This document shows, piece after piece, positions 35,024 through 38,448 of a stretch of DNA of 64,000 nucleotides (position 1 is the first letter of the stretch; every line of letters starts with the position of its first letter). The position numbers were made by a program, and so were the translations under genes. Location: the NCBI RefSeq assembly GCF_022846255.1, contig NZ_AP025682.1. One strand, written 5' to 3'. The notes under the pieces are model-generated. The model did no database searches, was not told where the DNA came from, and saw nothing but the letters and a program-made list of their open reading frames with translations. The stretch is from Escherichia coli (GTDB taxonomy: Bacteria; Pseudomonadota; Gammaproteobacteria; Enterobacterales; Enterobacteriaceae).

Positions 35024-35341
35024 ATGAAAAAGATAGCTGCTATATCATTAATTAGTGTTTTTCTTATGTCTGGTTGTGCTGTGCATAATGATGAGACAAG
35101 TATCGGTAAATTTGGCCTTGCATATAAAAGTAATATTCAGCGTAAACTCGATAACCAATACTACACCGAAGCCGAAGCTTCTTTAGCCAGGGGCAGAATT
35201 TCTGGTGCAGAAAATATAGTAAAAAATGATGCAGCTCATTTCTGTGTTACTCAGGGAAAAAAAATGCAGATAGTTGACCTGAAGACAGAAGGTGCAGGAT
35301 TACATGGCGTCGCTCGTCTGACATTCAAATGTGGAGAGTGA
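35024..35341 (+). CDS. yegR: small lipoprotein YegR
   Basis: 105 aa from MKKIAAISLISVFLMSGC (lipobox LMSGC); SD GGAAGG upstream; the 125-aa track ORF is an extension. Confidence 0.8.
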   Translation: MKKIAAISLISVFLMSGCAVHNDETSIGKFGLAYKSNIQRKLDNQYYTEAEASLARGRISGAENIVKNDAAHFCVTQGKKMQIVDLKTEGAGLHGVARLTFKCGE

Positions 35342-35498
35342 GAATATTTTTTGGTAAGCGTCAAACATGCGCGTTCTGGCTGTGCGTAACCGGAACCTGT
35401 GCGAGCACGATGCCAATAAGTGAAAGGCATCGTGCTATGAGGGGAGATTCTATCGATGTGGTCAATGGAAGACGGTTACCAGGATACGGCTTATGCAT

Positions 35499-35585
35499 AA
35501 AAAATAAGCCCGTGTAAGGGAGATTACACAGGCTAAGGAGGTGGTTCCTGGTACAGCTAGCATTTTATGGGTTATGTTTTTCAGC
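35499..35585 (-). ncRNA. cyaR: CyaR (RyeE) Hfq-dependent sRNA
   Basis: Minus strand reads GCTGAAAAACATAACCCATAAAATGCTAGCTGTACCAGGAACCACCTCCTTAGCCTGTGTAATCTCCCTTACACGGGCTTATTTTTT, matching CyaR including the terminator hairpin and U-tract. Confidence 0.85.
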
Positions 35586-35669
35586 GAAACGGATGATAAC
35601 CTTAATAAATGCAGCTGTATGTGATCGGTTTCTAAGAATTTTCCATCCGGGAAAAATAATCGAAATTAA

Positions 35670-37031
35670 TCACTTACCGTGGGGGTTACGCGTGGTTTCC
35701 CCGGAGAAATTACGCATCAGCAGCGCGTAATTTAGCTCAAGATCCTGCGGCACCGGGATCCACACAGTATAACCATCGCCCGGTGCGACCGGCATTGCTT
35801 CGCCTTTGGCGTTTTCCATATGCTCAAGGGTAAAGTTAATGTTCCCTTGCGGCGTCATCAGCTCAAGGCTGTCGCCAACGGAGAATTTATTTTTCACCGC
35901 TACCGCCGCGAGGTCGCCCTTGCGCTCACCGGTAAACTCACCAACAAACTGCTGGCGGTCAGAAACTGAATAACCGTATTCGTAGTTCTGATAATCGTCG
36001 TGAGTATGACGACGCAGGAAACCTTCGGTATAGCCACGATGCGCCAGACCTTCCAGAGTTTCCAGCAGGCTGGTATCGAACGGTTTGCCCGCAGCGGCAT
36101 CATCGATAGCTTTACGGTAAACCTGCGCGGTGCGTGCGCAATAGTAGAAAGATTTGGTACGACCTTCGATTTTCAGCGAATGCACGCCCATTTTGGTCAG
36201 GCGTTCTACATGGGCGATGGCGCGCAGATCTTTCGAGTTCATGATGTAAGTGCCGTGCTCATCTTCAAACGCGGTCATATACTCGCCCGGACGCTGGGCT
36301 TCTTCGATCATAAACACTTTGTCGGTTGGCGCGCCGATACCCAGCGTCGGCTCAACATTTTGCACCGGAATCGGCTCGTACTTGTGTACGATGTTGCCAA
36401 CGTCATCTTCTTTCCCTTCCTGGACGTTGTACTCCCAGCGGCAGGCGTTGGTGCAGGTACCCTGGTTCGGGTCGCGCTTGTTGATATAGCCAGAGAGCAG
36501 GCAGCGACCGGAGTAGGCCATGCACAGCGCGCCGTGAACGAAGATCTCGATCTCCATATCCGGCACCTGATTGCGGATCTCTTCAATCTCTTCCAGCGAC
36601 AGCTCGCGAGAGAGGATCACGCGGGTCAGTCCCATTTGCTGCCAGAATTTCACCGTCGCCCAGTTCACGGCGTTAGCCTGTACCGAGAGATGGATCGGCA
36701 TTTCAGGGAAGTGCTCGCGCACCAGCATAATCAGCCCCGGATCGGACATAATCAGCGCATCCGGCCCCATTTCCACCACCGGTTTCAGGTCACGGATAAA
36801 GGTTTTCAGCTTGGCGTTGTGCGGTGCAATGTTGACCACAACATAAAACTTTTTCCCCAGCGCGTGGGCTTCATTGATGCCGAGCTGAAGATTTTCGTGG
36901 TTGAATTCGTTGTTGCGCACACGCAGGGAGTAACGCGGCTGGCCCGCATAAACAGCATCTGCGCCATAAGCGAAAGCGTAACGCATATTTTTCAGCGTTC
37001 CCGCCGGGGAAAGGAGTTCCGGTTTAAACAT
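35670..37031 (-). CDS. yegQ: U32-family protein YegQ/TrhP (tRNA U34 hydroxylation)
   Basis: 453 aa, MFKPELLSPAGTLKNMRYAFAYGADAVYAG (U32 family). Confidence 0.93.
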   Translation of the reverse strand: MFKPELLSPAGTLKNMRYAFAYGADAVYAGQPRYSLRVRNNEFNHENLQLGINEAHALGKKFYVVVNIAPHNAKLKTFIRDLKPVVEMGPDALIMSDPGLIMLVREHFPEMPIHLSVQANAVNWATVKFWQQMGLTRVILSRELSLEEIEEIRNQVPDMEIEIFVHGALCMAYSGRCLLSGYINKRDPNQGTCTNACRWEYNVQEGKEDDVGNIVHKYEPIPVQNVEPTLGIGAPTDKVFMIEEAQRPGEYMTAFEDEHGTYIMNSKDLRAIAHVERLTKMGVHSLKIEGRTKSFYYCARTAQVYRKAIDDAAAGKPFDTSLLETLEGLAHRGYTEGFLRRHTHDDYQNYEYGYSVSDRQQFVGEFTGERKGDLAAVAVKNKFSVGDSLELMTPQGNINFTLEHMENAKGEAMPVAPGDGYTVWIPVPQDLELNYALLMRNFSGETTRNPHGK

Positions 37032-37133
37032 AATTCTCTCGTTCTGATGACAGGTCAGATCCGCTTCACCTGATGAAGCGGTTAGGGGAGTGCCCCCACT
37101 TTAAGGGCGGGCATTGTAGCGCAATCGGCGGGT

Positions 37134-37430
37134 TTAGCTCCAGTGTAAATGTCTGGAGGCGTCCTGGTTTTGGTTAAGGATACGAATGACGATAATTTCC
37201 TCTGGTGATTGCAGGAAATAAATTACGTGGCGTTCAAAAGGAAGAACAAAAATACCTTCGCCTAATTCAGGTCTGGGTGTACCTATATTATTGTTACTCA
37301 GAATCTGGAGAACGTCTGAAAGATGTTCCACATATCTGTCGGCTTGTGGTTCGCCGAAATGGTGATAGCTGTAATACCAGATGCCTTCTAAATCCTCATT
37401 GGCTTTTGGCATGAGTTTTATAGTACGCAC
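37134..37430 (-). CDS. ParE/RelE-superfamily toxin (type II TA)
   Basis: 98 aa; pattern A..DL..I..Y ... HVIYF ... IIVIRIL typical of ParE toxins; start 1 nt after the stop of the upstream RHH antitoxin gene. Confidence 0.75.
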   Translation of the reverse strand: MRTIKLMPKANEDLEGIWYYSYHHFGEPQADRYVEHLSDVLQILSNNNIGTPRPELGEGIFVLPFERHVIYFLQSPEEIIVIRILNQNQDASRHLHWS

Positions 37431-37431
37431 A

Positions 37432-37683
37432 TTATTTCCTTATCCCTGCTTTCACCTTCCGTAAAAACGCGTCCTTTTCCCACGGCTGAGCTTCACCACT
37501 ACTCAACCCTTCAGCGAGCATGTCACGTAACGCTTGCAGGCGAGACTCTGCTTGCTTTTCTCGAAGTAAGCGCAGCGACTCACGGATCACTTCGCTTTGG
37601 GTGCGATAGTCGCCGGATTCAATTAAGGACTCGATAAATTCACGCAACTCATCGCCGAGATCAACCGTCATCGTTCTGGCCAT
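37432..37683 (-). CDS. ParD-like (RHH/CopG, COG3609-type) antitoxin
   Basis: About 83 aa from MARTMTVDLGDELREFIESLIESGDYRTQSEVIRESLRLLREKQ (ribbon-helix-helix fold pattern); immediately upstream of the ParE-like gene. Confidence 0.75.
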   Translation of the reverse strand: MARTMTVDLGDELREFIESLIESGDYRTQSEVIRESLRLLREKQAESRLQALRDMLAEGLSSGEAQPWEKDAFLRKVKAGIRK

Positions 37684-37696
37684 TTTACGCCCGCCT

Positions 37697-37713
37697 GTAA
37701 GTAAAAATCTTAC
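37697..37713. promoter_or_regulatory. candidate autoregulatory operator palindrome of the TA promoter (GTAAG-N7-CTTAC)
   Basis: Inverted repeat 14 bp upstream of the antitoxin ATG; the operator assignment is inference. Confidence 0.3.
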
Positions 37714-37936
37714 ATCAGTGTATTTCATAAACCGGATAGCGTCACGAAAGTATTAGAAGATATTTTGGCATATGAACATGTTCAGGAAGATAAGTATGGG
37801 ATGGTAAACAAAGAAAGCACAACGAGTGCTTGTCAGTGCCCACTATTTTAATGGCGGAGGTTAATCTTAATTATCAATAACTAAGAGTTGTTTTGATATA
37901 AAGCCGGACGCCAACAACCCACGCCCGGCATCGTAA

Positions 37937-38269
37937 TTACGTATTGTCTTTTACCGTCTGACTTGTGCCATTGGCTTTAACGGAGGCAATTCCGGTTTCA
38001 CGAGATTGCGCGGTGGCGTACATCTGGCTGGAGCCGATAATTTGATGATTGGCGGCTTTCAGATTGAAATAGAATTTGCCGTTGCTTGCCGTTTTTTTCT
38101 CATAGCGTTCTTCTTGCGGGCTGTTGCTACGTACCGACGCGATGCCCTTTTCCGCAGAGGCTTTTGAGGTATACAGCTCGCTGGTGAGGATAGTCTCACC
38201 ATTGCCCGCTTTTAGCACAAACCGGAACTGATTATCACTGCTCTTACTGAGTTCAAACCAACCAGCCAT
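37937..38269 (-). CDS. yegP: YegP (UPF0339, tandem DUF1508 repeats)
   Basis: 110 aa from MAGWFELSKSSDNQFRFVLKAGNGETI; internal repeat (FVLKAGNGE.. / YFNLKAANHQ..). Confidence 0.85.
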   Translation of the reverse strand: MAGWFELSKSSDNQFRFVLKAGNGETILTSELYTSKASAEKGIASVRSNSPQEERYEKKTASNGKFYFNLKAANHQIIGSSQMYATAQSRETGIASVKANGTSQTVKDNT

Positions 38270-38448
38270 AATGACTCCTTGATTGAAATTGCGTATCGAA
38301 AACAGCATCTAAAGGTACTGTTTGCCAATTAAAGTATGAGCGATTTTCTGGTGCCTGCCAGGGCGGAGAGATAATGTCAGTTTGCTGACCATGCGTGGGA
38401 TAATGTTGCCGGATCTGGTCTGAAGGCCATCTCCGGCAGGTAAAAATG

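Follow-up and report, generated by a model that had tools for sequence, protein, structure and literature searches.

The spacer between yegP and yegQ in this Escherichia coli genome most probably holds a type II toxin-antitoxin operon, chromosomal and of the ParD/ParE family, in which the antitoxin ParD would repress the operon and neutralise ParE, a putative gyrase poison. The module most likely persists at this chromosomal site as a selfish or near-neutral addiction element. Both genes are intact and under purifying selection, as measured by dN/dS relative to Escherichia whittamii (0.02 for parD; 0.11-0.15 for parE).

The gene pair and its products

An earlier note on this DNA had described two small minus-strand genes, 1 nt apart, between yegQ and yegP, and both the open reading frames and the sequence bear this out. 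The range that it assigned to them, 37032..37936, is that of the whole yegQ-yegP spacer, but alignment of the junction, which it had proposed, confines the cassette-specific part to 37123..37902. Positions are those of the window, the whole 64-kb stretch of DNA that was analysed, and the features are the following:

37032..37122, minus strand: conserved yegQ (trhP) leader, from alignments; outside the cassette
37123..37902: cassette-specific segment, 780 bp, edges good to about 5 nt, from alignments with K-12 MG1655, EDL933 and ETEC4070
37134..37430, minus strand: parE toxin gene, 98 aa, ParE family, GTG start
37432..37683, minus strand: parD antitoxin gene, 83 aa, ribbon-helix-helix, starting at the ATG at 37683
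37696..37714: palindrome TGTAAG-N7-CTTACA, probably the operator of ParD; the expected transcription start falls within it
37717..37745, minus strand: inferred sigma-70 promoter of parDE, with -35 GTGACG (37745..37740), a 17-nt spacer and -10 TACACT (37722..37717)
37815..37831, minus strand: terminator-like hairpin from a consensus scan, in the upstream non-coding part of the cassette
37903..37929, minus strand: yegP terminator hairpin, from sequence, scan and alignments; common to all alleles

The variable segment is bounded on its left by the yegP terminator hairpin, and the yegQ leader is common to cassette-bearing, empty and island-bearing alleles. The layout is that of a type II operon, with the antitoxin gene upstream and the toxin gene tightly coupled to it on the same strand: a single nucleotide (37431) separates the parD stop codon TAA (37434..37432) from the parE GTG (37430), and a Shine-Dalgarno-like AAGGA for parE lies at about 37437..37441, within the end of parD. 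An Rfam search of 35300..38400 returned CyaR only, and nothing in the cassette.

The ribbon-helix-helix, ParD-like character that had been read from the upstream gene is confirmed by profiles and by relatives in the PDB. ParD matches Pfam ParD_antitoxin (PF03693) at 4.7e-19 over residues 1-78, from the first residue of the short form, and NCBIfam TIGR02606 with 88.4 bits (cut-off 46.2). Its PDB sequence matches range from 1.9e-27 for the best, PrpA (7YCS), to 9e-11 and comprise PrpA, VcParD2, CcParD1 and MtbParD1, covering residues 2-78 of PrpA, 1-77 of VcParD2 and 3-76 of CcParD1; the N-terminal ribbon-helix-helix DNA-binding domain and the C-terminal toxin-binding region are both homologous to those of solved ParD proteins. 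Weaker profile matches were to RHH_1 and the NikR N-terminal domain.

The parD open reading frame extends over 37432..37728 and contains a further in-frame ATG at 37683, and the RefSeq/PGAP product is a 98-aa protein that begins at the ATG at 37728. That upstream ATG sits between the inferred -35 and -10 elements, and in E. whittamii a 1-nt insertion places it out of frame, so that the parD open reading frame there encodes 83 aa. The 98-aa form is probably an over-extension, with its start about 15 codons too far upstream.

The downstream gene, which had been called ParE/RelE-like, lived up to that description. ParE matches Pfam ParE_toxin (PF05016) at 7.7e-14 over residues 4-90, a model that also covers RelE-like toxins and alone places the protein only in the RelE/ParE superfamily; no NCBIfam model matched the toxin, even at E<=10. 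Its PDB sequence matches were PrpT (6e-13) and, at about 2e-7, M. tuberculosis ParE1, Caulobacter ParE1 and V. cholerae ParE2; the significant matches at E<=1 were ParE toxins only, and a sixth, unrelated chain appeared at E 0.91. An AlphaFold2 model (pLDDT 93.9) has the order strand-helix-helix-three strands (E3-6, H8-25, H27-46, E60-65, E68-74, E78-86), which corresponds to the ParE fold, where a hairpin of two N-terminal helices packs on an antiparallel sheet of three strands, and solved ParE proteins are its nearest structures. A lack of ParD/ParE profile matches, which the earlier note had named as telling against its reading, is thus not what was found: PF03693, TIGR02606 and PF05016 all match.

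A probable operator and promoter, conserved across cassettes

The palindrome that had been noticed upstream of the antitoxin gene, GTAAG-N7-CTTAC, is real and extends to TGTAAG-N7-CTTACA, but its reported spacing of 14 bp is off by one or two, since it ends 13 nt before the ATG at 37683 (12 nt counting the extended arms). With one mismatch allowed, the pattern occurs once in the window, where 0.05 occurrences are expected by chance. We aligned eight homologous upstream regions, taken from E. coli, E. whittamii, a Pluralibacter chromosome and Klebsiella/Salmonella IncF plasmids, and found GTAAGA and CTTA invariant and the spacer and flanks variable. The palindrome is the most conserved block upstream of the homologous cassettes on IncF plasmids and in Pluralibacter, and among the loci compared it was found upstream of parD only. 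Adjoining it, the -35-like hexamers and their 17-nt spacing to the -10 are conserved across the eight regions, with TACACT, TAAACT, TATAAT and TATCAT as the aligned -10 hexamers. Because it is the most conserved upstream block and adjoins this conserved arrangement, the palindrome is very probably the ParD operator.

The putative parDE promoter is likewise proposed from conservation across cassettes. A consensus promoter scan with a threshold of 9-of-12 gave no site on the minus strand; the proposed promoter scores 8/12. A search for direct and inverted repeats (pairs up to 60 bp apart) returned only two small unrelated palindromes; the 6-nt arms and 7-nt spacer of the operator palindrome are below the settings of that search.

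Distribution and age of the cassette

The cassette is present in 1845 of the 5426 complete E. coli genomes, always as one chromosomal copy at the same site and never on a plasmid. As the earlier note had stated, K-12 has no gene between yegP and yegQ: in MG1655, 21 bp stand in place of the 780-bp segment. The note had further taken the locus for a strain-variable insertion into a conserved backbone, a reading to be given up if K-12 and all E. coli had the same two genes at this position. Variability among strains holds, with MG1655 and O157:H7 EDL933 both lacking the cassette; insertion into a conserved backbone does not fare as well.

An intact cassette occupies the same yegP-yegQ site in the sister species E. 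whittamii, where its non-coding DNA is only 82.5% identical to that of E. coli and dS is about 0.2, and two allele groups about 2.6% apart are found within E. coli. At this site a related species, Escherichia sp. E1V33, has an internally deleted, decayed remnant of the cassette. In CFT073, Nissle 1917 and UTI89, which we take to be B2 as well-known strains of that group, a 5.2-kb island replaces window positions 37153..37840 and is flanked by about 62 nt of the upstream end of the cassette and the last approximately 19 nt of parE. The site is a variable hotspot, with different cargo in its place in other lineages. Local alignments place the starts of the B2 island and of the E1V33 deletion no more than 2 nt apart, at 37839-37841, just upstream of the terminator-like hairpin, and this near coincidence hints at a site-specific replacement mechanism at the hotspot.

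Two other readings were rejected. A partial match in strain HS-01 (28% coverage) is a cassette copy full of homopolymer runs, most likely an assembly artefact and not a fourth allele. The 21-bp K-12 filler, considered as a remnant of the parE 3' end, aligned with the cassette no better than shuffled sequences did (1438 of 2000 shuffles anywhere in the cassette; 1516 of 2000 against the last 45 nt) and is therefore no evidence that the empty allele of the K-12 type derives from the cassette.

We considered that a plasmid-derived toxin-antitoxin cassette might have been inserted recently, by horizontal transfer, into an otherwise conserved backbone. The empty alleles of K-12 and EDL933 would fit such an event, relatives are common on conjugative IncF plasmids (2640 matching plasmid records, 562 of them at 60-80% identity), and parDE has a lower dS (0.2) in the comparison of E. 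coli with E. whittamii than either yegQ (0.38) or yegP (about 1), which would fit some later exchange by recombination. However, no true plasmid copy exceeds 80% identity (two 96% matches come from records of chromosome size that are filed under plasmids), identity to the nearest plasmid toxins is only about 66%, and nothing in phage records exceeds 43% coverage, reached by one fragment in a 2-kb Salmonella record. The marks of a mobile insertion are also missing: the yegP-yegQ interval has no integrase, transposase or recombinase open reading frame, a search within 37100..37950 for short-range direct repeats (pairs no more than 60 bp apart) found none, and comparison of the junction sequences by eye revealed no duplicated target beyond a shared TTTA. 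Occupation of the same site in E. whittamii with so diverged a non-coding part, the persistence of cassette ends around the B2 island, the E1V33 remnant and the two E. coli allele groups all speak against recent arrival as well, and we regard it as improbable. Given the E. whittamii copy, the E1V33 remnant, the B2 ends, the lack of mobile-element marks and the distance of the plasmid toxins, the cassette is more likely old at its site, with loss or replacement elsewhere; the module would be old in Escherichia, lost in lineages of the K-12 type and overwritten by the island in B2.

Relatives, proposed mechanism and alternatives

The best match to both proteins, in sequence and in fold, is PrpT/PrpA of Pseudoalteromonas rubra (7YCS, 7YCU; PMC9731233). 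PrpA and ParD have an identical beta-strand, RTMTVD, and PrpT superimposes on ParE with a TM score of 0.87 and an rmsd of 1.1 Å, although the two are only 33% identical in the structural alignment. The PrpA recognition motif, (G/A)TTTG(T/A)AAT(A/G), weakly resembles the half-site TGTAAG (PMC9731233). In contrast to the chromosomal E. coli cassette, which has no replicon nearby, PrpTA is carried by a plasmid, and control of plasmid replication is ascribed to PrpA (PMC9731233).

The systems of characterised gyrase-poisoning ParE toxins, V. cholerae ParDE2 (7R5A), M. tuberculosis ParDE1 (8C24) and Caulobacter ParDE1 (3KXE), have the same fold (TM 0.83-0.85), operon order, ribbon-helix-helix antitoxin and conserved C-terminal RILxQxxD...HL region as the cassette. 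Their toxins are 26-31% identical to ParE and have Trp where the cassette toxin has Phe25, at the position of VcParE2 Trp25, at which PrpT, too, has Phe; the V. cholerae operator consists of three GGTA motifs, whereas the putative operator of the cassette is a single 19-bp palindrome. For two enterobacterial ParDE modules, Yersinia pYV ParDE (PMC10203498) and the IncI/IncF ParDE-I (PMC6614396), experiments support toxicity, filamentation or SOS induction, and a role in plasmid maintenance. We rejected both as the closest characterised relatives because both are distant: the pYV proteins are 30% (ParE) and 37% (ParD) identical to those of the cassette and have a different palindrome, and ParDE-I, which falls in another subgroup, has a described identity to Caulobacter ParE1 of only 15% (PMC6614396).

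By analogy with characterised systems, a single sigma-70 promoter would co-transcribe parD and parE, ParD dimers bound to TGTAAG-N7-CTTACA over the transcription start would repress the operon, and the ParE:ParD ratio would tune repression; ratio-dependent autoregulation is known for V. cholerae parDE2 (PMC10776004). The disordered C-terminal half of ParD would wrap and so neutralise ParE; RK2 parDE is activated by ClpAP (PMC6191456). Gyrase poisoning by ParE would lead to double-strand breaks, the SOS response and filamentation. Such inhibition or poisoning is predicted from V. cholerae ParE2, a gyrase poison (PMC3001019; preprint 10.1101/2025.07.24.666505), and from M. tuberculosis ParE1, a gyrase inhibitor (PMC10899793). 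Several points run against this account as a whole: Phe25, the missing NCBIfam toxin model, the promoter that the consensus scan passed over and the weak or absent toxicity of some chromosomal ParE toxins under the conditions tested (PMC6813445). In addition, the structure paper of PrpT, the closest solved relative, reports nothing on gyrase, a word that it does not contain (PMC9731233).

The toxin could instead be a RelE-like, ribosome-dependent mRNA endonuclease, since PF05016 and the RefSeq product name ('RelE/ParE family toxin') span the whole superfamily and the fold is common to both kinds of toxin. In a Foldseek search of the PDB, however, ranks 1-23 were all ParE-type toxins (TM up to 0.87; 0.83-0.87 to PrpT, MtbParE1, VcParE2 and CcParE1), as was every significant PDB sequence match, and RelE, YoeB and YafQ appeared among the fold matches only from rank 24, with TM <=0.66. 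The model also has the long N-terminal alpha-hairpin typical of ParE, BLASTP of the toxin against E. coli RelE gave no match even at E<=1000, the PDB sequence search at E<=10 returned no RelE-type chain, and the partner is a ParD-type antitoxin, not RelB. From this lack of similarity and the fold ranking, no alignment having been obtained on which the RelE catalytic residues could be compared, the toxin is predicted not to be a RelE-type RNase, and we consider an endonuclease highly improbable. A role in abortive-infection defence against phage, which is compatible with the ParDE operon that we favour, is very unlikely. Some type II toxin-antitoxin systems do defend against phage, and the hotspot with its alternative cargo is in keeping with such a role; but PADLOC matched neither protein, and the neighbours are baeSR, yegP and yegQ, with no other defence genes adjoining. 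On the four proteins of the B2 island, PADLOC gave one marginal match (E 0.0014).

The module might also be domesticated or attenuated, with a weakly toxic or non-toxic ParE, the pair serving mainly as a regulator or as an anti-addiction and cross-regulatory partner of parDE homologues on IncF plasmids. Phe25 fits this possibility, as a Phe substitution at Trp25 lowered toxicity in the VcParE2 context, and so do the equal numbers of non-synonymous and synonymous changes in parE within E. coli (three of each) and the report that several chromosomal ParE toxins showed no toxicity in the conditions used (PMC6813445). The proteins have also diverged unequally from those encoded beside the RepB (FIB-type) replication gene in Klebsiella, Salmonella and Citrobacter plasmids of the IncFIB/IncFII type: chromosome-plasmid identity is 87-90% for ParD versus only 66-67% for ParE. 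These plasmid modules have the same TGTAAG-N7-CTTACA, promoter layout and ParE length, but their genes overlap by 14 nt, their ParD has a 5-residue C-terminal extension, and they adjoin a site-specific recombinase as well as RepB, unlike the cassette. Against attenuation, the two E. coli alleles and E. whittamii all have an intact parE, at the low dN/dS given above. Moreover, on the E. coli plasmid p89_MLI108-3, where the antitoxin has been lost, the toxin homologue is disrupted by a premature stop and by frameshifts, as expected if the toxin were active. We hold attenuation to be unlikely.

Significance of a chromosomal parDE locus

As a discovery the cassette carries little weight: it is an ordinary pair from a well-studied family, both proteins are already named in RefSeq, and the exact proteins occur on at least 1000 contigs in public databases under ParD and RelE/ParE names. 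RefSeq probably annotates the antitoxin with 15 codons too many at its start. K-12-centred reviews of E. coli toxin-antitoxin systems treat ParDE as a plasmid system only, and a literature search via the flanking genes, the RefSeq protein accessions, and ParDE with phylogroup found no study of the E. coli yegP-yegQ cassette. A third of complete E. coli genomes carry a chromosomal parDE that is apparently unstudied.

That the chromosomal module serves the parDE modules of IncFIB/FII plasmids as a partner in anti-addiction and cross-regulation is doubtful. Between chromosome and plasmid, the DNA-binding domain of ParD (residues 1-45) reaches 100% identity, as with the Klebsiella aerogenes plasmid pC9_001, the toxin-binding half is 79-82% identical, and the operator is the same, which makes cross-talk between chromosome and plasmid testable. 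If it occurred, chromosomal ParD could both shut down the plasmid operon and counteract plasmid ParE in the cassette-bearing third of E. coli, and the stability of IncFIB/FII resistance and virulence plasmids would be altered. An old resident that has been lost or replaced in other lineages bears, in turn, on the turnover of chromosomal toxin-antitoxin loci.

The parDE gene pair and its family

The earlier note had placed two small minus-strand genes, 1 nt apart, between yegQ and yegP, and both open reading frames and the 1-nt gap are indeed present, with the gap between the parD stop codon and the parE GTG and an AAGGA a few bases ahead of that GTG.

Features of the yegQ-yegP interval (window coordinates)
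35670..37031, minus: yegQ (trhP), neighbour downstream of parE
37123..37902: cassette-specific segment, 780 bp
37134..37430, minus: parE open reading frame, 98 aa, from GTG at 37430 to 37134
37432..37728, minus: parD open reading frame, from ATG 37728 or the second in-frame ATG 37683 to TAA 37434..37432
37937..38269, minus: yegP, neighbour upstream of parD

On the far side of yegQ, between it and yegR, lies the CyaR/RyeE small RNA (35502..35587, minus; Rfam RF00112 at 100.7 bits, where the gathering score is 47).

The note had described the upstream product as ParD-like and the downstream one as ParE/RelE-like, and both proteins match ParD/ParE profiles. The short form of ParD (83 aa, beginning MARTMTVDLGDE) matches Pfam ParD_antitoxin (PF03693) at 4.7e-19 from its first residue and the NCBIfam 'ParD family antitoxin' model TIGR02606 at 88.4 bits (curated cut-off 46.2). 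The toxin matches Pfam ParE_toxin (PF05016) at 7.7e-14 and none of the NCBIfam models. Since both PF05016 and the RefSeq product name span the entire RelE/ParE superfamily, we examined the distinction between ParE and RelE further. In a sequence search of the PDB, the toxin found five ParE toxins at E<0.05 (PrpT, 6e-13; M. tuberculosis ParE1, Caulobacter ParE1 and V. cholerae ParE2, ~2e-7; Mesorhizobium ParE, 0.04) and no RelE-type chain even at E<=10; by BLASTP, it had no similarity to E. coli RelE. The antitoxin's closest solved relatives are the ParD partners in these same ParE complexes (PrpA, 1.9e-27; VcParD2, CcParD1 and MtbParD1, 3e-12 to 9e-11). A confident AlphaFold2 model of the toxin, built from 100 diverse homologues (pLDDT 93.9, pTM 0.85), predicts a short strand, a hairpin of two long helices and three strands. 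When this model was compared with the PDB by Foldseek, ranks 1-23 were all ParE-type chains, with TM scores of 0.83-0.87 for PrpT, MtbParE1, VcParE2 and CcParE1, while RelE, YoeB and YafQ first appeared at rank 24 with TM <=0.66. Thus, every feature that can be computed places the pair in the ParD/ParE family, and the cassette is very probably a ParD/ParE toxin-antitoxin operon. The gene pair is genuine and intact, and it is well conserved within an already known family.

Both proteins are already annotated, as RefSeq names each of them, and at least 1000 contigs in public databases carry identical sequences. ParDE is given among plasmid loci only in a review from 2025 on the type II systems of E. 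coli. A figure in a 2020 review lists TAfinder predictions for E. coli W and other strains; outside that figure, our literature search turned up no study devoted to the present cassette.

Probable operator, putative promoter and ParD start codon

The palindrome reported upstream of parD exists and is slightly longer than described (TGTAAG-N7-CTTACA, 37696..37714), and its distance from the start is 12-13 nt to ATG 37683 rather than 14 bp. The 64-kb window contains a single match to it even at one mismatch, compared with 0.05 expected. Eight homologous cassettes were compared by aligning their upstream regions. Three are from Escherichia (the present cassette, a second E. coli allele and that of E. 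whittamii), one is a decayed copy on the Pluralibacter gergoviae chromosome, between alr and tyrB, and four are on IncF-type plasmids (from Klebsiella aerogenes, K. pneumoniae, Salmonella enterica and S. bongori). The cassettes from outside Escherichia lie in unrelated contexts and encode toxins just 63-69% identical to those of Escherichia. All eight regions keep the GTAAGA and CTTA(C) parts of the palindrome unchanged and differ in its spacer and flanks.

A TAnnnT hexamer stands 3 nt upstream of the palindrome (TACACT in the window; TAAACT, TATAAT or TATCAT in the others), and a -35-like hexamer 17 nt above it (GTGACG in the window; TGGACG or TAGCCA in the others). We infer from this alignment a putative sigma-70 promoter of parDE at 37745..37717, which scored below threshold in a simple consensus promoter scan. 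Its transcription start would lie within the left palindrome arm, such that bound ParD would block initiation.

The 98-aa ParD of RefSeq begins at ATG 37728, between the inferred -35 and -10 elements, and in E. whittamii a 1-nt insertion throws this upstream ATG out of frame, leaving a parD open reading frame of 83 aa. Thus, the true product is likely the 83-aa protein from ATG 37683, and the RefSeq/PGAP annotation would carry an extra stretch (37684..37728, minus). Both forms are present in public databases.

States and history of the yegP-yegQ spacer

The spacer between yegP and yegQ is a hotspot that exists in several states. Of 5426 complete E. coli genomes, 1845 contain the 780-bp segment, without exception as a single, chromosomal, ParD/ParE-annotated copy. 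A wider query with flanks was covered over its whole length in 1843 genomes. The 780-bp segment occurs in two allele groups (188 genomes at >=99% identity to the window; 1655 at 95-99%, mostly 97.4%). The cassette is absent from K-12 MG1655, O157:H7 EDL933 and ETEC4070, which have one common junction with a 21-22-bp filler (21 bp in MG1655) and thus a single empty allele; alignment of this junction bounds the variable segment at 37123..37902. The statement in the earlier note that K-12 has no genes here, and its view of the cassette as strain-variable, are therefore both borne out. One sampled genome (E. coli BKQWHE, L016 6288..7450) carries an IS3-family element in the empty spacer. Unlike K-12 MG1655, an assembly labelled 'DH5alpha' (NZ_CM135829.1, hit H45) contains the cassette (97.9% identity); this record is probably mislabelled or not K-12-derived. 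In E. coli HS-01 (NZ_CP172817.1, L013 874..1755) the cassette region has many long homopolymer stretches of A, T and G, and no genes are annotated in it; most likely this reflects an error of sequencing or assembly and not a biological allele.

A different cargo occupies the site in 298 of the 5426 genomes, including Nissle 1917, CFT073, UTI89 and ATCC 25922. This 5.2-kb island encodes four proteins (a 201-aa hypothetical protein and DUF4034, DUF1266 and PcfJ-domain proteins), among which PADLOC gave just one marginal match (E 0.0014). We call it the B2 island, taking its lineage to be B2 from the well-known strains CFT073, UTI89 and Nissle 1917. In ATCC 25922 (L005 16625..21950), cassette sequence survives on both sides of the island: ~62 nt from the upstream end, reaching 37841, on the yegP side, and the final ~19 nt of parE with the 11 nt that follow (from 37152) on the yegQ side. 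Thus, the island replaced 37153..37840 of a pre-existing cassette.

The earlier note had taken the cassette for an insertion into a conserved backbone, as its absence from K-12 might suggest. Several results argue against a recent insertion, in addition to the cassette ends that surround the island. E. whittamii has an intact cassette at the same site (baeR-yegP-parD-parE-yegQ), 94-96% identical to the window in coding sequence and just 82.5% in the non-coding upstream part; parDE dS is ~0.2, with dN/dS of 0.02 (parD) and 0.11-0.15 (parE), a sign that the two cassettes have long evolved apart, with purifying selection acting on them. Its relative Escherichia sp. E1V33 (yegQ 95.6% and yegP 97.9% identical) retains a remnant at the same site, consisting of the upstream end to 37839 followed by the part of parE that begins near codon 56, which is frameshifted and has lost its stop codon. 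There is no recombinase or transposase in the segment, a short-range search found no flanking repeats, and phage records yielded nothing relevant. The nearest true plasmid toxins are only 66-67% identical, as two 96% 'plasmid' matches are chromosome-sized records. Thus, the direction of change is probably the reverse of that proposed, with the cassette as the old resident. The K-12 filler has no significant similarity to the cassette, so that the origin of the empty allele by deletion is an argument from parsimony.

The left breakpoints of the B2 island and the E1V33 deletion lie at most 2 nt apart (window 37839..37841; E1V33, L008 ~1452..1466; ATCC 25922, L005 ~16721), which may reflect one replacement event common to both, or else a mechanism specific to this site. 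A 14-nt filler in E1V33, AGGATAAGCTTCAT, resembles the opening bases of the island, AAATAAGTTTCAG, although sequences of this length are too short for a judgement.

The recombination or divergence history is uneven along yegQ-parDE-yegP. Between E. coli and E. whittamii, dS rises from 0.2 in parDE to 0.38 in yegQ, 0.5-0.7 in baeR and ~1 in yegP. Since parDE falls below its neighbours, it may have been exchanged by homologous recombination after speciation. yegP itself (37937..38269 against L006 3160..3492 of E. whittamii) is unusually diverged (dS ~0.9-1.05).

Toxin mechanism and plasmid relatives

Among systems with a solved structure, the nearest is PrpT/PrpA of Pseudoalteromonas rubra (PMC9731233). 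Among toxins whose mechanism has been characterised, the nearest are V. cholerae ParE2, M. tuberculosis ParE1 and Caulobacter ParE1 (26-31% identity); Yersinia pYV ParDE and IncI/IncF ParDE-I are more distant. We consider it fairly likely that the cassette acts by gyrase poisoning combined with palindrome-mediated autorepression. One residue calls for caution in the gyrase reading: toxin Phe25 aligns with Trp25 of VcParE2, a reported key gyrase contact for which, in the VcParE2 context, Tyr alone is a full substitute (preprint 10.1101/2025.07.24.666505). PrpT also has Phe at this position.

The toxin matches 2640 plasmid records, mostly from Klebsiella and mostly conjugative plasmids, and in the copies inspected the module adjoins a site-specific recombinase and a RepB replication gene. 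Some homologous cassettes, on plasmids and on a chromosome, have decayed. In p89_MLI108-3, an E. coli IncFIA/FIB/FIC plasmid (L018 2217..2600), IS1 has removed parD, and the leftover parE homologue has a premature stop codon and frameshifts; several other E. coli plasmids give the same broken, unannotated match. The Pluralibacter gergoviae ATCC 33028 copy (L007 3717..4300) keeps its palindrome intact, with ATA in place of the parD ATG and parE interrupted after 43 codons. The decay in p89_MLI108-3 and Pluralibacter fits what is expected of such modules.

In the comparison of chromosomal with plasmid proteins, conservation is strikingly higher for ParD (87-90% identity) than for ParE (66-67%). 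Residues 1-45 of ParD are 100% identical to those of K. aerogenes pC9_001, the toxin-binding half is 79-82% identical to that of the plasmid proteins, and the palindrome is common to both groups. Thus, judged by this conservation, cross-repression between the chromosomal cassette and its plasmid homologues is plausible, and the two may possibly cross-neutralise.
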